This document shows positions 606 to 40,908 of a stretch of DNA of 64,000 bases, piece after piece. The notes beneath the pieces were generated by a model that was given only the letters and a program-made list of their open reading frames with translations, was not told where the DNA came from and searched no databases. This DNA comes from a phage. The stretch is taken from sequence record PZ452578.1; one strand, 5' to 3'. Within the stretch, counting starts at the first letter, position 1; each line of letters begins with the position of its first letter. The position numbers and the translations under genes were made by a program.

Positions 606-1241
606 TCACAGTTCAGATGCTACAGTGATTACTGCTTCAATGTTTTCTGCCGAGCGTTTAATGTCAAGATACACATTACCGTTTTTAGCGATTTTACATG
701 ACATTCCGATGTCAGTAAATTTCTGAATATGATGTTCCATCATTTTGTATCCAAAAATTCGCATATTTCCATTGTTGTTAATTTCAAAATTACGAATTCC
801 GTGAGTACGTTTTTCTAAAATAGCGAGATAGTTACTACGATAAGTTTCAACCTTTTTAAGAACAAATCCATTTTCATCTAAAAGTTTTAACATGAAGTCT
901 TTATCTTCTTCCATATCAGAAGTAATCTCACGAGCTTTACGAGTTGCTCGTTTTTTCAGTAGTTCCGGAGCATTTTCCTGTGCGTATAAAGTTGCTGCGT
1001 TTGAAATAATATCCTGAGCTTCACCAGTAATGATTAATCCATCACCAGATTTCTCCACCAGGCCTTTTTTAATCAATACCCCAATATTACTATTAACTAC
1101 TGCGTTACCTAAATCTGGATGCACCTCACGAACTTCTGCAGCTGTAATGAAATCTTTCTTAGCAATGGTAATTAAAATCGCAGCAGTTTTTTCATTCAGA
1201 ACATCGTTAGAAGCTTTGATGATGTAAGTTACTTTAGACAT
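606..1241 (-). CDS. motA: MotA, activator of middle transcription
   Basis: ORF track 211 aa; N-terminus MSKVTYIIKASNDVLNEK and length match T4 MotA as recalled. Confidence 0.9.
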   Translation of the reverse strand: MSKVTYIIKASNDVLNEKTAAILITIAKKDFITAAEVREVHPDLGNAVVNSNIGVLIKKGLVEKSGDGLIITGEAQDIISNAATLYAQENAPELLKKRATRKAREITSDMEEDKDFMLKLLDENGFVLKKVETYRSNYLAILEKRTHGIRNFEINNNGNMRIFGYKMMEHHIQKFTDIGMSCKIAKNGNVYLDIKRSAENIEAVITVASEL

Positions 1242-1282
1242 TTTCTAATCTCCGTAATTCTGTATCAGCAGTTGATAGTTGT

Positions 1283-1325
1283 ATAGTACCACAGTATGCT
1301 TTGGTTGTAAACCGTTTTGTGAAAA
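1283..1325 (-). promoter_or_regulatory. T4-type early promoter (GTTTAC -35, 17-bp spacer, TGgTACTAT -10, A/T-rich UP region) with conserved leader, upstream of motA
   Basis: Plus strand shows atagta at 1283-1288 and gtaaac at 1307-1312 (reverse complement of -10/-35); member of repeated promoter-leader family. Confidence 0.7.
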
Positions 1326-1335
1326 AAAATTTTTG

Positions 1336-1366
1336 AAATAAAAAAGGGAGAGCCTCGGCTCTCCCT
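1336..1366 (-). terminator. Intrinsic terminator (GC-rich hairpin GGGAGAGC-loop-GCTCTCCC followed by U-run on minus-strand RNA)
   Basis: Inverted repeat 1346-1365 with A-run 1336-1345 on plus strand. Confidence 0.7.
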
Positions 1367-1370
1367 AAAA

Positions 1371-1520
1371 TTACTGCATGACTGTGATAACTGTCATGAT
1401 AACACGTTGAATTCCGAACGCAAGAAGACCTCCTGCTACGGCTGGAACAACGCCTAAACCCGCTAGTAAAATGCTACCAGATACTAATGCAGCGCTTGTA
1501 ATACCTATGAATGGACTCAT
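1371..1520 (-). CDS. small hydrophobic protein (49 aa)
   Basis: Own translation MSPFIGITSAALVSGSILLAGLGVVPAVAGG...; start overlaps gp52 stop (ATGA); below ORF-track size cutoff. Confidence 0.45.
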   Translation of the reverse strand: MSPFIGITSAALVSGSILLAGLGVVPAVAGGLLAFGIQRVIMTVITVMQ

Positions 1521-2845
1521 TTGATTTCCTCTAAATCTTTGGTGTATTCTGTAACTACATCAGTAGTTTTCCAATATTCGTTTTCTTCTTTTTTGGCTTT
1601 AGCTTCTTCAGCAAGTTTCTTCGCTTCATCGGAAGTCATATGAAAAATATTCATTCCAACTAGTTTATCAACATAAGAAGAATACATATCGATTTTCGAA
1701 AGTTCTTCGGTCAGTTCTTTACGAGTTTTACCCTGTACAACGATTTCACCTGAAATTACTTTCTTAATGAAATGTGCCTTGGCAAAGGCTAAACGAAAAG
1801 CTGATTCAGTTTCTTTAATTTTGTTATCAATTCGTTTTTGGACATAAGTTTTACGAACTTCAACAAAGTCTTTAATTAAATCAACTACGTTATCGTAAAC
1901 TTGTAGTTTTCCTTTCTCATTAATAACCGTAATATTCTGAGAACGACGTTCAATCAATCCGAAGTCTTTCATAATTTTTGCATGGCGTTCTTCTTCGTTA
2001 TCGCTCAAAGAGTATTCTTTGCGGAATTTAACTTTGAAGCCAAAACCATGCTCACCACAAGCATCATCCCATGTAATGAAGCCTTTATCTTCAAGCGGGT
2101 CTAAGATTTTACTCACATAAGTTTCACGATCATACTTATACGGAATCTCAGTGATATGCATTTGAGTTCGTGAAGTAAACTTATATGTTCCACGAATTTC
2201 ATATTGACCGTCAATCTCAACGACTTCACCACGAAATTCTGGGAATTCTACCTTTGGTTTAGTTACTTTCTTTCCTTGAAGAGCTTGTAATACAGCTTTC
2301 TTGACAGAAGAAACACTATGAGGAAGAATGTAAGTTGCATAACCAGTTGCAATACCGGAAACGCCATTAAGAAGAACAGTAGGAATAATAGGCAAATAGA
2401 AAGCAGGCGGAATATGTTCTTTATCTTGATGTACCGGAGCATATTCAGTATCTTTATATACGTTATAGAAATTTTTACTTACACGAGCAAAAATATAACG
2501 ACTTGCCGCTGCCTTTTGGACAGTACGAGAACCAAAGTTTCCTTGACCGTCTAACAAAGGAAAGTTATTATTCCAAGTATTAGCCATCAAAGCCCCCGCA
2601 TCTTGTGCAGAGTTTTCACCATGATGATATCCAAGGTCCGCTACACCGCCTGCGATAGAAGCGAGTTTGTGAAACTTATCTTTATTTCCTCGTGCCAAAT
2701 CAAGAGCTCGAGCAATAACAAATCGTTGAACTGGCTTAAATCCGTCAATCATATTTGGGATAGCACGATTTTCAACCGTGTACATAGCATAAGCCAGTGC
2801 TTCATTATCAATGATACTTTTTAAATCGCGATTATTCAGTTGCAT
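1517..2845 (-). CDS. 52: DNA topoisomerase II medium subunit gp52 (GyrA-like)
   Basis: ORF track 442 aa; matches T4 gp52 length and N-terminus as recalled. Confidence 0.9.
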   Translation of the reverse strand: MQLNNRDLKSIIDNEALAYAMYTVENRAIPNMIDGFKPVQRFVIARALDLARGNKDKFHKLASIAGGVADLGYHHGENSAQDAGALMANTWNNNFPLLDGQGNFGSRTVQKAAASRYIFARVSKNFYNVYKDTEYAPVHQDKEHIPPAFYLPIIPTVLLNGVSGIATGYATYILPHSVSSVKKAVLQALQGKKVTKPKVEFPEFRGEVVEIDGQYEIRGTYKFTSRTQMHITEIPYKYDRETYVSKILDPLEDKGFITWDDACGEHGFGFKVKFRKEYSLSDNEEERHAKIMKDFGLIERRSQNITVINEKGKLQVYDNVVDLIKDFVEVRKTYVQKRIDNKIKETESAFRLAFAKAHFIKKVISGEIVVQGKTRKELTEELSKIDMYSSYVDKLVGMNIFHMTSDEAKKLAEEAKAKKEENEYWKTTDVVTEYTKDLEEIK

Positions 2846-13105: not shown

Positions 13106-13594
13106 TTATGCATAGAGAGCATTGCTATAGTGTTTAATCCAACTTTCAGGAATGACTTTGTATGTTCCTAAAAATACCACGTTGTACAACTTAACGCCAT
13201 CTTCTACCCATTGATCGGTAATGTATCCACACATAGCGCGAGTATAAACAGCCTTTCCATCATCTTTGATAAATTTAAATTCACAAGGAGCAATGAACTT
13301 AATAGCTTGACCGAGTTTCCACTTAAAGTCTACACCTACATGCGAAGTATCAATCGTTTCAATTCCTTTAGCGGGAACAGCTTTCAAAAACGCAGATTCA
13401 AGAAATTTCGCACGAACATAGCCAAACTGAGGTTTAGACTTTCCATCTTTAGGAATGATACGCACTTTTACTTCAGAATCTTCATCTTTAACACCATGTT
13501 TAAGCTGAATGCTTACAATTTCGACCAATTTTCCTGCTGCTTTAGAACGGGATTTATCAGATACACGAGCAATTTCACCAATATTAATAATCAT
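13106..13594 (-). CDS. MotB-position protein (162 aa)
   Basis: ORF track; length matches T4 MotB; C-terminus similar to next gene. Confidence 0.55.
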   Translation of the reverse strand: MIINIGEIARVSDKSRSKAAGKLVEIVSIQLKHGVKDEDSEVKVRIIPKDGKSKPQFGYVRAKFLESAFLKAVPAKGIETIDTSHVGVDFKWKLGQAIKFIAPCEFKFIKDDGKAVYTRAMCGYITDQWVEDGVKLYNVVFLGTYKVIPESWIKHYSNALYA

Positions 13595-13638
13595 AGTTAT
13601 CTCTCACTTGTTAAAAAGATTTTATACTCCACAGGACC

Positions 13639-13675
13639 ATTATACTCTGGCCCCAAGAGTTTGTAAACTATTAAT
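13639..13675 (-). promoter_or_regulatory. T4-type early promoter (GTTTAC / TATAAT)
   Basis: Plus attata 13639-13644, gtaaac 13663-13668. Confidence 0.6.
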
Positions 13676-14210
13676 TCAAAATAGCTACCACTGCACTACG
13701 AGGTACTACACTAAAATCGCCTGCATGAACAACATTCAGAAGTTCAACGCCATCTTCAATCCATTGGTCTGTTACCCAACCACAGACCGAAATAAATGGA
13801 GTCTTGATAGCTACCGCATGAGTTAGAAGGTCAGTAGGATCAACTTCTTTGAAGAGGATAAGCTCTGCTTCAAAAACTATAGTTTTAATTACTTCATCAT
13901 TATCTAAACGTTGTACTCGAATCACGTAAGCTTTATTCTTATCATACCAGTTACTTTTTGAAAAGCTTTTAACCACAAACTCGCCTTCACCAAAAGCATT
14001 AGTCAATGCTTTATAACCCAAATTTAGTTCAGTAGTTTTAATTTCAGTTTCAACCAGTTTGTAGGTTTTGCCGATTTCAATAGCGGTAGTCATAGTAGGT
14101 TCCTTAATTTCCAGTGGTTTAACAGGGCATACATAAGTGCTTACAACATCAAAATCAATCAGTTTAGCTACCGGATTTGGTATGTATTCAGGATTATAAT
14201 TAAATTTCAT
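13671..14210 (-). CDS. hypothetical protein (179 aa), paralog of the 13106..13594 product
   Basis: ORF track; shared C-terminal motif TDQW[IV]EDGV.L.NVV. Confidence 0.6.
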   Translation of the reverse strand: MKFNYNPEYIPNPVAKLIDFDVVSTYVCPVKPLEIKEPTMTTAIEIGKTYKLVETEIKTTELNLGYKALTNAFGEGEFVVKSFSKSNWYDKNKAYVIRVQRLDNDEVIKTIVFEAELILFKEVDPTDLLTHAVAIKTPFISVCGWVTDQWIEDGVELLNVVHAGDFSVVPRSAVVAILN

Positions 14211-37126: not shown

Positions 37127-37813
37127 TTAAAAATCGTGGGTAGAATCAGCTTCAAGAGCTACTACATAATTCGCATGTTCACCTTCAAATTTAGCAGCGC
37201 CTTGTTTACCTTTTGCCCAGAGCAGAAGTTTATAATTTCCTGGTTGCATTTTCATATTTGCCATATTGATAATGAAATTAAATGTATTTTCACCATCATA
37301 ATCACCAAGAGTCAAAGAATATTTAACACGGGTCAGAGCAGAATCTTCTACTTTATTAAAACCGTTAATTACGATTTTACCTTCTTTTACCGTGATAGCA
37401 ATTGTATCAATTTGCAGACCACGAGATACACGCAACAGTTGTTGAAGGTCTTCAGCTTTAATTTCAGTAACAACAGATGCTACCGGGAATGGAATTGGTT
37501 TATTAGGAGCAACTACTGTACTCGGATCGGCTGCTGGCCAAAAAATTGTTGAGCGGGCATCAGCAATTTTAATATTTCCATCTTCTGACTGGGAAATTTC
37601 TGCATCATCATTAACTAGAGACAGAATACCGAGAAAACCGTTCAAATCGTAAATTGCTACATCAAAATCAATAACGTCAGAAATATTTGCTTCCGCATAA
37701 GTTGTACCATTAACTGCGCGAGTCATAATAAATTGACCGGATTTAAGCATAATACCAGAGTTAATAGTAGCGAAATTTTTAAGCAGAGCAGTAGTATCTT
37801 TAGACAGTTTCAT
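37127..37813 (-). CDS. 45: gp45 sliding clamp
   Basis: ORF track 228 aa; matches T4 gp45. Confidence 0.95.
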   Translation of the reverse strand: MKLSKDTTALLKNFATINSGIMLKSGQFIMTRAVNGTTYAEANISDVIDFDVAIYDLNGFLGILSLVNDDAEISQSEDGNIKIADARSTIFWPAADPSTVVAPNKPIPFPVASVVTEIKAEDLQQLLRVSRGLQIDTIAITVKEGKIVINGFNKVEDSALTRVKYSLTLGDYDGENTFNFIINMANMKMQPGNYKLLLWAKGKQGAAKFEGEHANYVVALEADSTHDF

Positions 37814-38267: not shown

Positions 38268-38459
38268 TTAGTCATAATAATCAGTAACAGTCCAAGCTTC
38301 ATTTCTATTGGACATTATTTTTGTATATTCTGCTTTAAATGCATTCCTAAGCATAGATTCAGTAACTATATGCTCTTCATTAGAAAAATTATTTCTCAGA
38401 ATATATCGTTTTATTTCAGGAATAGTTAATAGATGCTGTCCAGTTGAATATTCTGCCAC
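38268..38459 (-). CDS. hypothetical protein (63 aa), 45.2 position
   Basis: ORF track. Confidence 0.55.
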   Translation of the reverse strand: MAEYSTGQHLLTIPEIKRYILRNNFSNEEHIVTESMLRNAFKAEYTKIMSNRNEAWTVTDYYD

Positions 38460-38510
38460 AGTTCCTCCGTATAAATATGTTTATCACTCGCTGTATCAAA
38501 AGGATATGTT

Positions 38511-39227
38511 ATGAATTATAAACTAATTTATGAAAAGTTAATCTCTAATGCTAAATCTCGAAAACTTGATTGCTATACTGAATCTCATCACATTATACCG
38601 CGCTGTTTAAATGGAAGTGATGATGCTTCAAACTTAGTAGATTTAACACCAGAAGAGCACTATGTAGCTCATCAACTTTTAGTAAAAATTTATCCTTCTG
38701 AACCAAAATTAGTCTATGCTGCTAACATGATGACAGTTTCTACGAAATACGCTAAACGCAACAATAAAACTTTCGGTTGGATTCGTCGTAAACTCTGGGA
38801 AATAGAAAAGAACAAAGAATTCTCCCAGGAGACACGAAAGAAAATGTCTGATGCAGTAGCTAATAAAGCAAGACTAACTTGTCCTCATTGCGGTAAGTCT
38901 GGATTAAGCGGGAATATGAATCGTTGGCATTTTGATAACTGCCCAAATCACCCTAATCCTAAAGTTAGACCACCAATGTCTAAAGAACACAGAAATAATA
39001 TCTCAAACGGGCTTAAAGCAATCGTTCTTGAAGAAACATCCTGCGAATTCTGCGGAATGATAGGCAAGAAATGCGTTATCGCAGCGCATAGAAATTTCTG
39101 CAAGAAAAATCCAAATGGACGCAAGAAAACTGAAAAGACTGGTACTTGCGTCCATTGCGGTAAAGTTACCACTTTCGGAAATTTATCAAGGTGGCATAAT
39201 GATAACTGTAAATATAAACCTAGCTAA
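38511..39227 (+). CDS. HNH homing endonuclease (mob-like) with Cys-rich C-terminal DNA-binding repeats
   Basis: ORF track 238 aa on plus strand; HNH motif ESHHIIPRCLNGSDDASNLVDLTPEEHYVAH; absent from this position in T4. Confidence 0.8.
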   Translation: MNYKLIYEKLISNAKSRKLDCYTESHHIIPRCLNGSDDASNLVDLTPEEHYVAHQLLVKIYPSEPKLVYAANMMTVSTKYAKRNNKTFGWIRRKLWEIEKNKEFSQETRKKMSDAVANKARLTCPHCGKSGLSGNMNRWHFDNCPNHPNPKVRPPMSKEHRNNISNGLKAIVLEETSCEFCGMIGKKCVIAAHRNFCKKNPNGRKKTEKTGTCVHCGKVTTFGNLSRWHNDNCKYKPS

Positions 39228-40908
39228 TCTTAGCTAAACTAAATCTACCAACTTTTTCCATCTGAATATGCTGACCATATTCTTGTGGGTCATGGTCTTT
39301 ATGCGAAATTATGAAGAAGTTGGTATCCTTCAAACCATCTAAAATTTTAGCTACATTTTTAATGCCTTCAGCATCAAATGCACCATCATACACTTCATCA
39401 AGAAATAAACAACTTATTTTAACACCTGAAACTTTTTCAGCAATATCACGCCAAGTAAATAAAAGAGCAATATCAATTCGTGCTTTTTCACCTTGACTGA
39501 ATGAAGCATAACTAAAATCTTCACGACCACGGGATTTAATTGTCTCATTAAATTCTTCATCTAATGTAAACACATAATCCGCTTCCATTATTTTAAGATA
39601 ATGGTTAATCTGCTTATTAAATAATGGAATGTACTTTTTAATAATAGCACCTTTAATACCAGAATCTTTGAGCATATCAGTCAAAATTCCTCGGTGGTAT
39701 TTTTCCATTACTAAATTAGTTTTTGTCTTAACAATTTTATCAAGTTCTTCTTGAAGCAGTGCTATTTCATCAGCATGGTCAATAAACTCAGAAGATGCTT
39801 TTTCTATAGCCGCTTTAACTTTTTTAGCTTTATCTACCGTCGTGATTAGAGATTGCTTTTTATTGCGAATATCATTTGCCAACGACTGTTGGGTTTTAAT
39901 ATTATCTCGGTATTCATCAACAAGAACTTTTAAATTATCACGGTGTGTTGAAAGCTGTTCAAATGAATGCGTACATTCAGAAACTTTATCTTTAATTTTA
40001 GAAACAACTTTATCACCGGAACTTAATTGTGACAAACAGGTTGGACATAATCCACCTTCGTGATACATATTAATGACTTTATTATACGAGTCAATTTTTG
40101 ATTTAATTAAAAATGCTTCTTGACCGATTTTATTAAATGCATCAGTCGGGTCTTCATCTAAAACAATATTAACTAATCTTTCATTAGCTTCTTCTATTTC
40201 TGATTTTAGCGTTCTAGCTTCTTTTGCCAAATCATCATACATATTTTGTAGACGAGTAAGGTTGTCACCCGTTAATTTTTTCTGGCGTTCAACGTTATCA
40301 TTATATATTTTAATTTGTTGGATAATACTATCTTTTTTAACATCAAGCACTTGGTTTTGTGAATTTAATTCACGTATTAGTGCTTTATTAAGCTTATCCA
40401 TTTCAGCTAATGTTCCTACCTCAAGCAGGTCTTCCACAAGCTTTCTTCGTGCAGGGGTCGACAAACCCATGAAAGGGATATACCCTGCTGTACCAAGGAC
40501 AACAATCTGCTTGAAACTGGCATATGACATTCCGATAAGCTGTTCAAATTCTGCTTGGAAATCTTTACTGCTGGCAGATTCATTAAGACGTGTACCGTTA
40601 ACGGTGATTTCGAAAACGTTTGGTTTTTGTCCTCTTTTGATATAGTACTTTTTCTCATCATATTCCATCCACAGTTCAACTAAAAGTTCTTTCTTATTTG
40701 TGCTGTTTATTAATTGACCTTTCTTTACATCACGAAATGGCTTGCCAAAAAGCCCAAATGTGATGGCTTCTAGCATAGTAGACTTACCACCGCCATTTCG
40801 TCCAGTAATAAGAGTTTTTTGAACCTTATCTAATTGAATGTCAATAGGATTTCCACCTACTGACATTATATTTTGATACCTAACTCGGTTTAGTTTAAAA
40901 TTCTTCAC
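39220..40908 (-). CDS. 46: gp46 recombination nuclease subunit (Rad50/SbcC-like)
   Basis: ORF track 562 aa; Walker A GRNGGGKST. Confidence 0.9.
   Translation of the reverse strand: MKNFKLNRVRYQNIMSVGGNPIDIQLDKVQKTLITGRNGGGKSTMLEAITFGLFGKPFRDVKKGQLINSTNKKELLVELWMEYDEKKYYIKRGQKPNVFEITVNGTRLNESASSKDFQAEFEQLIGMSYASFKQIVVLGTAGYIPFMGLSTPARRKLVEDLLEVGTLAEMDKLNKALIRELNSQNQVLDVKKDSIIQQIKIYNDNVERQKKLTGDNLTRLQNMYDDLAKEARTLKSEIEEANERLVNIVLDEDPTDAFNKIGQEAFLIKSKIDSYNKVINMYHEGGLCPTCLSQLSSGDKVVSKIKDKVSECTHSFEQLSTHRDNLKVLVDEYRDNIKTQQSLANDIRNKKQSLITTVDKAKKVKAAIEKASSEFIDHADEIALLQEELDKIVKTKTNLVMEKYHRGILTDMLKDSGIKGAIIKKYIPLFNKQINHYLKIMEADYVFTLDEEFNETIKSRGREDFSYASFSQGEKARIDIALLFTWRDIAEKVSGVKISCLFLDEVYDGAFDAEGIKNVAKILDGLKDTNFFIISHKDHDPQEYGQHIQMEKVGRFSLAKIS

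Follow-up and report, generated by a model that had tools for sequence, protein, structure and literature searches.

A predicted three-finger homing endonuclease of the Mob family at the 45.2-46 junction of T4-like phages

Background

The phage sequence record PZ452578.1 was analysed over a stretch of 64,000 nt, one strand, which is called here the window and represents the early-gene region of a Tequatrovirus (T4-like phage); between positions 37800 and 40000 it is 99% identical to PhiZZ30, slur07, RB32 and RB33. On the plus strand, at 38511-39227, between the minus-strand genes 45.2 and 46, the window carries an open reading frame (ORF) of 238 codons plus stop. In this work we have analysed this gene, its predicted product and its surroundings. 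From sequence comparisons we consider it likely that the product belongs to the T4 Mob family (group 1 HNH/His-Me finger) and acts as a free-standing homing endonuclease on the 3′ end of gene 46 of co-infecting relatives that do not carry the gene.

The gene, its position and the label 'homing endonuclease' are already present in GenBank and in a review table. The counterpart in RB32, RB32ORF054w [GenBank: DQ904452], has carried the annotation 'putative site-specific intron-like DNA endonuclease, similar to mobB' since 2006, dozens of other records are labelled likewise, and the review of Petrov et al. 2010 counted two mob-like HNH genes in RB32 (PMC2993671). RB32ORF054w is the same gene as that of the window (about 99-99.6% amino acid identity of the products, same position, same orientation), with no difference between the two systems. 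It represents an ordinary, uncharacterised T-even free-standing endonuclease of a known kind, and current understanding is not challenged by our findings. New here are the three-finger architecture as a marker of a clade, the strict fidelity of this clade to one locus across at least five genera, and the presence/absence polymorphism in three genera; new as well are a mosaic tract of gene 46 that is linked to the endonuclease gene, a stretch that may serve as target and immunity site, and the sharing of the junction with an unrelated HNH_3-AP2 element. The endonuclease explains a local mosaic boundary in the essential recombination gene 46. The system is also unusually easy to test, with presence/absence pairs available in three genera and a narrow predicted target in the last ~15 codons of gene 46, and classical strains can be used for crosses (carriers RB32, RB33 and RB68; non-carriers T4 and T2).

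Organization of the 45.2-46 junction

The coding sequence (38511-39227, plus strand) is defined by the ORF listing, by the matches of its product to PHROG 655 and RB32ORF054w, and by an AlphaFold2 model. It starts with ATG, and a ribosome-binding site, AAGGA (38500-38504), lies six bases 5′ of the start codon. Fifty ORFs of at least 150 amino acids were found in the window, two of them on the plus strand; the other one, 13211-13666 (151 amino acids, TTG start), overlaps the minus-strand ORFs 13106-13594 and 13671-14210 and is probably spurious, not a gene. The ORF at 38511-39227 is the sole credible plus-strand gene in 64 kb, in agreement with a first-pass annotation of this DNA, which named it the only sizeable one. 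It is not a chance reading frame, since its product matches PHROG 655 'homing endonuclease' (E=9e-69), has 2299 homologs at E≤1e-5 in a large protein database and shows ratios of non-synonymous to synonymous substitution rates (dN/dS) of 0.07-0.2. The pairwise ratio is 0.07 between two Tequatrovirus copies (dS=0.13) and 0.13-0.21 between genera, for comparisons with unsaturated dS; the protein is thus maintained by purifying selection.

Gene 46 (39220-40908, minus strand) encodes a Rad50/SbcC-like subunit of a recombination nuclease and is the presumed target gene. It is arranged tail-to-tail with the endonuclease gene, and the overlap with the gene 46 stop reported in the first-pass annotation amounts to 8 nt (39220-39227), the stop codons being located at 39225-39227 (plus strand) and 39220-39222 (minus strand). 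A 7-bp direct repeat, TAGCTAA-TCT-TAGCTAA, extends across the overlapping stops at 39221-39237; the RB68 sequence differs here.

At the corresponding junction T4 has no ORF and a spacer of 55 bp, which bears out the earlier claim that the gene is absent from this position in T4. According to the BLAST breakpoints the inserted cassette, which is assigned to neither strand, spans 38454-39239, i.e. 786 bp in place of 72 bp of T4: the left flank is 98.9% identical to T4 up to 38453 and homology starts again at 39240. The homologous cassettes of Mosigvirus and Slopekvirus have matching boundaries. The earlier description of the gene as inserted between 45.2 and 46 is correct as to the junction and incomplete as to the extent, since the 72 bp replaced include, besides the 55-bp spacer, the final gp46 codons and the start codon of 45.2 with its ribosome-binding site. 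Consequently gene 45.2 (38268-38459, minus strand) obtains its GTG start and Shine-Dalgarno sequence from the cassette, and its product begins with M-A-E-Y vs M-E-Y in T4; the extra Ala codon is found also in the endonuclease-carrying allele of Mosigvirus. The last five to six codons and the stop of gene 46 likewise lie within the cassette, so that gp46 ends in GRFSLAKIS vs GRFTVMV in T4. Because the cassette brings the C-terminal codons of gp46 as well as the ribosome-binding site and start of 45.2, its exact excision would come at a cost.

A perfect T4 late-promoter consensus, TATAAATA, is present at 38470-38477 (plus strand), 41 nt upstream of the ATG, and is the sole plus-strand copy in the window. 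The cassettes of Dhakavirus and Mosigvirus have the motif as well, at -44 and -53, respectively, and the leader sequence is conserved. By analogy with the established T4 late-promoter consensus, it would direct late transcription of the endonuclease gene. The 45.2-46 spacer of T4 (L003 1448-1502) contains, inside a 9-bp inverted repeat and 42 nt upstream of 45.2, a promoter-like sequence made up of a MotA box and a -10 element, ATGCTTTAATTTATTAGAGTATAAT. Sequence comparison revealed no MotA-type promoter-like sequence within 900 nt upstream of 45.2 in the window (38460-39360, minus strand), and transcription of 45.2, rpbA and 45 may be different in the endonuclease-carrying phages. RNA folding of the 5′ untranslated region and of the region of the overlapping stops gave z-scores of -0.4 and -1.4, with no sign of a hairpin sequestering the ribosome-binding site (as in mobE and I-TevI) or of a terminator; a terminator scan found none.

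The HNH module and family membership

The N-terminal ~75 residues of the protein hold the motif E-x-H-H-I-I-P-x-C-x-G-G-x-D-x3-N-L-V-x-L-x4-H-x3-H, characteristic here of the HNH (beta-beta-alpha-metal) site. In the window protein it occupies residues 24-54 (38580-38672, plus strand) and reads E-S-H26-H27-IIPRC..G..D...N41-LV.L....H50...H54. Residues H26, H27, N41, H50 and H54 do not vary in the 71 homologs aligned, and H26/H27, N41 and H50/H54 correspond to the general-base His, the Asn and the metal-ligand His of group 1 nucleases. The AlphaFold2 model, with a predicted local distance difference test score (pLDDT) of 93 over the full length and 95 for residues 1-118, places strands at 24-27 and 42-45 and a helix at 47-60, i.e. 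a strand-strand-helix arrangement at the HNH residues. Three fold searches returned nothing meaningful and the HNH fold was not confirmed by them.

Among the 71 homologs PF01844 (Pfam HNH) is matched at E≤0.01 by 39, at best with 2.8e-6, and NUMOD3 by 49. In tblastn searches the T4-type mobE, taken together with nrdB.1, gave a full-length match at 35% identity, and mobD and many other 'Mob-like' genes were also detected. Translated T4 MobE aligns with the N-terminus of the window protein, and the HNH module is common to T4 MobA-E. In the classification of His-Me finger nucleases, T4 MobA-E belong to group 1 with Cas9, McrA and the HNH domains of group II introns (PMC5714182); the weak sequence matches of the window protein, to a group II intron maturase HNH (6me0, E=0.006), McrA, Cas8-HNH and IscB, fall within the same group. 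The HNH assignment is sound at the level of motif and family, judged from these sequence relationships.

Three other affiliations were considered and rejected. Membership in the I-HmuI-like HNH_3 type (group 2) finds no PF13392 or PF05551 match in the window protein. The Lar restriction-alleviation family (PF14354) is matched with 15.9 bits (E=0.016) vs a cut-off of 28.6, a generic zinc-ribbon resemblance. The HNH proteins associated with terminases belong to a different family, and the window gene has no terminase context.

Three zinc fingers in the C-terminal half

The C-terminal half is predicted to consist of small modules in a row, a NUMOD3-like helix and after it three beta-beta-alpha units of C2HC type, each with Cys-x2-Cys in a hairpin and His-x3-Cys in a helix. 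Zinc finger 1 (38880-38942, plus strand) has the ligands C124-x2-C127...H140-x3-C144, with predicted strands at 121-123 and 130-132 and a helix at 133-143. Zinc finger 2 (39042-39101, plus strand) is C178-x2-C181...H193-x3-C197 (CEFCG...H...C), and zinc finger 3 (39147-39209, plus strand), C213-x2-C216...H229-x3-C233, is the terminal finger found family-wide. The first-pass annotation had recognized the first and the third of these as Cys-rich repeats (CPHCGK...WHFDNC, residues 124-144, and CVHCGK...WHNDNC, residues 213-233) and had missed the finger at residues 178-197. Fingers 1 and 3 are near-repeats of each other (G-N-M-x-R-W-H-F-D-N-C).

Five orthologs, from as many genera, all have the ligands of finger 1, and the full set of 12 zinc ligands is kept across orthologs of 42-64% identity. 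The four ligand residues of finger 3 are invariant in 71/71 homologs, and its motif, CPHCGK..N..RWH.D.C, is present also in T4 nrdB.1. Fingers 1 and 2 are restricted to the 22 closest homologs (at least 42% identity), and in more distant Mob proteins NUMOD3 repeats replace them. By sequence, then, the three-finger architecture is the marker of a clade.

Distribution of the gene in T4-like phages

At 95% amino acid identity or more the ORF was found in about 60 of 600 matching phage-collection records, always at the 45.2-46 junction; ~510 of the 600 are Tequatroviruses, judged by at least 80% identity, so that the gene is present in about 60 of 510 records of this genus. Orthologs at the same junction and in the same orientation are encoded by Dhakavirus (64% amino acid identity to the window protein), Mosigvirus (58%), Pseudotevenvirus (44%) and Slopekvirus (42%), as well as by Yersinia phage MHG19 and six metagenomic lineages (47-63%). 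In each of the 12 three-finger lineages examined the gene lies at the 45.2-46 junction, tail-to-tail with gp46, and in the sequences compared the three-finger C2HC clade is confined to this junction of T4-like phages. A scan of IMG/VR with the endonuclease alignment yielded mostly distant one-finger paralogs at other loci.

The comparison of the 45.2-46 junction across T4-like genomes, which the first-pass annotation had put forward as a check, revealed a gene that occurs sporadically in near-identical relatives, has clean empty sites and is not fixed in all relatives. In Mosigvirus it is present in 14 of ~155 close records and the rest have a clean empty site. The Slopekvirus junction exists in three states: empty (Miro), occupied by the three-finger endonuclease gene, or occupied by an unrelated HNH_3-AP2 endonuclease gene. 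The site is empty in T4, PNJ-6, Miro, ESCO10, Nando and STP4-a. At least three genera, Tequatrovirus, Mosigvirus and Slopekvirus, include genomes with and genomes without the gene.

The unrelated Slopekvirus element, at 1545-2099 (minus strand) of locus L010 from Klebsiella phage Satellite_ER45, codes for a 184-amino-acid HNH_3 plus AP2 endonuclease (HNH_3 match at 1.3e-11) on the same strand as gene 46. The occurrence of two unrelated HNH families at the 45.2-46 junction identifies it as an insertion hotspot. On the other side of gene 46, phage Aplg8 has another gene annotated as homing endonuclease (L131 4625-5201, minus strand) directly upstream of gene 46, at the usual site of 46.1 and 46.2, and the arrangement upstream of gene 46 in RB68 (L129 3629-4150) is also different from T4; gene 46 can therefore have mobile endonuclease genes on both flanks. 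A 100% identical endonuclease with T4-like flanks is found in a 142-kb record named 'Pseudomonas phage vB_PSGBLB0006' [GenBank: PV654520.1]; the organism or host label appears doubtful and the record is probably a Tequatrovirus.

The 3′ end of gene 46 in carriers of the endonuclease gene

A divergent 3′ tract of gene 46 is linked to the endonuclease gene. It covers 260 bp (39240-39499, minus strand), corresponding to gp46 residues ~470-556 with the signature motif, Walker B and the H-loop, and has 83% nucleotide identity to T4 vs 99-100% beyond the tract. At the protein level identity to T4 is 98.5% over residues 1-470 of gp46 and falls to 76% over residues 471-562, a C-terminal part in which 22 codons differ non-synonymously and 15 synonymously. 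Identity to the tract in the database is bimodal: 60 records show at least 95%, a number equal to that of the endonuclease-carrying records, and ~470 show 80-90%. All six endonuclease-carrying Tequatroviruses examined have the same tract allele with the same endpoint.

The tract is 82-83% identical in amino acid sequence to gp46 of other endonuclease-carrying lineages, the rest of whose gp46 is 64-73% identical to that of the window. Being closer to the gp46 of other carriers than to that of T4, it displays the pattern expected of a cassette that came into Tequatrovirus along with gene 46 sequence of its donor. A search for the donor of the Tequatrovirus tract did not find it, the best matches being metagenomic endonuclease-carrying lineages at the same 82-83% amino acid identity. 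A third 3′ allele of gene 46 was observed in ime09 and three other Tequatroviruses without the endonuclease gene; it is ~75% identical to the window allele (equivalent of 39300-39415). The ime09 allele is T4-like beside the junction and window-like from ~39418 to 39500, so the 3′ end of gene 46 is mosaic even in phages without the endonuclease gene.

The closest pairs of carriers and non-carriers, in Mosigvirus and Slopekvirus, differ on the gene 46 side only, with no difference in the 150 bp left of the junction. The Mosigvirus pair has five synonymous changes within 70 bp of the junction followed by 160 identical bases, and the Slopekvirus pair four changes within 90 bp followed by 620 identical bases.

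For the junction, a degenerate DNA pattern for the gp46 motif D-H-D-P-Q-x-Y-G-Q-H was of more use than the IMG/VR scan. The last 17 codons of gene 46 were aligned for 36 loci without the endonuclease gene (23 unique alleles, several genera) and 11 unique carrier alleles. Alleles without the endonuclease gene are nearly invariant, reading CAG CAT CTT CAA ATG AAG AAA GTT GGT CGA TTT ACN GTN ATG. Every carrier allele alters at least one of the positions nearly invariant among them. Carriers and non-carriers are best told apart by the first base of the Ile/Leu codon (window 39267), which is C in 21/23 non-carrier vs 3/11 carrier alleles; the difference (Fisher p=3e-4, in a test that ignores phylogeny) survives Bonferroni correction for 51 positions. 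In place of the Leu codon the window has ATT, Mosigvirus TTG and Dhakavirus TTA. The idea that one immunity change (Leu CTT to a codon not starting with C) is common to all carriers was considered and rejected: it holds for Tequatrovirus, Mosigvirus and Dhakavirus, and three further carrier lineages keep CTN, so that 39267 stands as the most strongly enriched of several positions. These three lineages are changed at other positions conserved in at least 95% of the non-carrier alleles (CGA>AGA, ACN>AGT, AAG>CTG, ATG>TTA).

From these alignments we assign, with moderate confidence, the stretch at 39232-39273 (minus strand, ~36 bp; gp46 codons Q-H-(I/L)-Q-M-(E/K)-K-V-G-R-F-(S/T)-..., gp46 ...QHLQMKKVGRFTVM) as the candidate region of recognition and immunity. 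A parallel is offered by T4 MobE, which nicks nrdB beside its own insertion site; in mobE-carrying phages the nicking site in nrdB is polymorphic (PMC2790892, Wilson & Edgell 2009).

Proposed mode of action and alternative explanations

The view of the gene as a free-standing homing endonuclease aimed at gene 46, voiced already in the first-pass annotation, is supported computationally by its intergenic position, its sporadic distribution, the retention of the HNH residues, the linked mosaic tract and the substitutions on the gene 46 side. By analogy with T4 MobE, the gene, which runs opposite to its neighbours, would be expressed late from a TATAAATA promoter of its own. During co-infection with a relative that does not carry it, the array of fingers and the NUMOD-like module would bind the conserved last ~15 codons of gene 46, and the N-terminal HNH domain would nick or cut near the bound site. 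Recombination-dependent repair would then copy the cassette together with a stretch of the 3′ end of the donor gene 46, while the carrier genome would be protected by the substitutions in its own gene 46 stretch. Late expression, the target site, the kind of cleavage and homing itself are what we infer from the comparisons described; a nick, as made by MobE, and a double-strand break, as made by I-TevIII, are not distinguishable from sequence.

Several observations weigh against homing at the end of gene 46. With 16.9 bits the window protein remains under the Pfam HNH cut-off of 21.4 bits (T4 MobE, at 21.5 bits, is barely above it), so that the earlier label of HNH nuclease stands for the motif and for family membership and not by this threshold. 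Experimental work on the gene was not found in the searchable literature. The immunity signal is statistical, not universal, given the three carrier lineages with CTN and a statistic that takes no account of phylogeny. The many non-synonymous changes in the tract indicate that most of its divergence reflects donor ancestry, not immunity. Finally, variable endpoints of co-conversion were sought among the six endonuclease-carrying Tequatroviruses and only a single endpoint was seen; one endpoint class fits one old acquisition followed by ordinary recombination as well as it fits ongoing homing.

This last point leads to the explanation that survives best beside homing, namely that the element is stranded or domesticated: once mobile, it would no longer home and would spread by ordinary recombination only, being kept for the cassette-encoded gp46 C-terminus and 45.2 start or for another benefit to the phage, e.g. 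excluding competitors. The uniform tract endpoint agrees with it, as do the host sequences embedded in the cassette, the rewired arrangement in which the MotA-type promoter-like sequence of the T4 spacer is gone, and a frequency of only ~10%. We nevertheless regard it as unlikely, as the whole protein, with its catalytic residues and 12 zinc ligands, is under strong purifying selection among orthologs only 42-64% identical, and as the gene is polymorphic independently, and with clean empty sites, in three genera, where a domesticated function would be expected to fix.

A second alternative retains an active homing endonuclease and moves its cleavage site to another part of gene 46 or to a distance of up to 1-2 kb, as for SegG and gene 32. 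Free-standing T4 endonucleases can cleave far from their insertion sites (PMC2988022), the 260-bp divergent tract includes candidate targets of equal conservation, namely Walker B and the signature motif, and the CTN codon is kept in three carrier lineages. The closest Mosigvirus and Slopekvirus pairs argue against it, for they differ only in the first 70-90 bp and are then identical for 160-620 bases, and so does the alteration of the candidate stretch in all carrier alleles; we judge a distant cut to be quite unlikely.

That the protein is not a nuclease at all, being a zinc-finger DNA- or RNA-binding late regulator, or that a late antisense transcript damps gene 46, is hardly credible: the HNH fold is unconfirmed by fold searches, the predicted late promoter points antisense into gene 46 with no terminator found and there is a weak Lar-like zinc-ribbon match, but this match is far under its cut-off, the HNH motif residues are invariant in 71/71 homologs, the homologous MobE needs its HNH motif for nicking and preferential inheritance (PMC2790892), and a sporadic distribution is atypical of a regulator.

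Homing directed at the end of gene 46 can also be put in a more specific form, which we offer tentatively as a possible though doubtful extension. The protein could be a natural 'zinc-finger HNH nickase', whose tandem C2HC fingers read a ~30-40 bp site at the end of gene 46 and have followed this site in no fewer than five genera while the carrier lineages escaped, each through a substitution of its own; in addition, gp46, which processes the breaks that homing relies on, could be modulated by the late antisense transcript. If so, the target would already be mapped by comparative genomics and the scaffold might be re-targetable.

Comparison with known endonucleases

The closest characterized relative is T4 MobE, encoded between nrdA and nrdB. 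Besides the full-length similarity, the two proteins share the N-terminal module MNY..IY...HHIIPRC.GG.D...NLV.LT..EH..AH and the terminal CPHCGK...RWH.D.C finger, and both genes are intergenic, located beside a conserved gene of DNA metabolism, sporadic in T-even phages and accompanied by polymorphism of the adjacent gene in carriers. They differ in locus, presumably in target (gene 46 for the window gene, nrdB for MobE), and in architecture, with one finger plus NUMOD3 repeats in MobE-type proteins and three zinc fingers in the window protein. Whereas mobE is promoterless and co-transcribed with nrdA, the window gene runs opposite to its neighbours and is preceded by a predicted late promoter of its own. 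Nicking has been shown for MobE.

The I-HmuI/HNH_3 endonucleases, including that of Satellite_ER45, are likewise built of a nuclease domain and a string of small DNA-binding modules, and the Satellite_ER45 gene shares the insertion hotspot with the window gene. They belong, however, to HNH subgroup 2 and not to group 1 as the Mob proteins do, and the Satellite_ER45 gene differs further in having AP2 modules instead of C2HC fingers and in lying on the gene 46 strand. A nuclease domain tethered to one or more zinc-finger modules is found also in I-TevI (GIY-YIG) and in engineered zinc-finger nucleases and nickases; unlike the window protein, I-TevI has a single finger that serves as a distance ruler and belongs to another catalytic family (PMC2988022). 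As regards C2H2 arrays, the helices of the window fingers are nearly identical (NM.RWHFDNC), and base reading in the C2H2 style is therefore unproven for them.

One observation concerns mobE of T4 itself. In T4 (NC_000866, 138500-141500) mobE, at 1492-1917 of this segment (minus strand), is annotated as 141 amino acids that contain the HNH part only, and nrdB.1, at 1217-1468 (minus strand), as 83 amino acids. The nrdB.1 product includes a NUMOD3 motif (Pfam E=1.7e-5) and the CPHCGK...RWH.D.C finger with which full-length Mob proteins end, so that mobE plus nrdB.1 of T4 look like one Mob gene split by a frame change.

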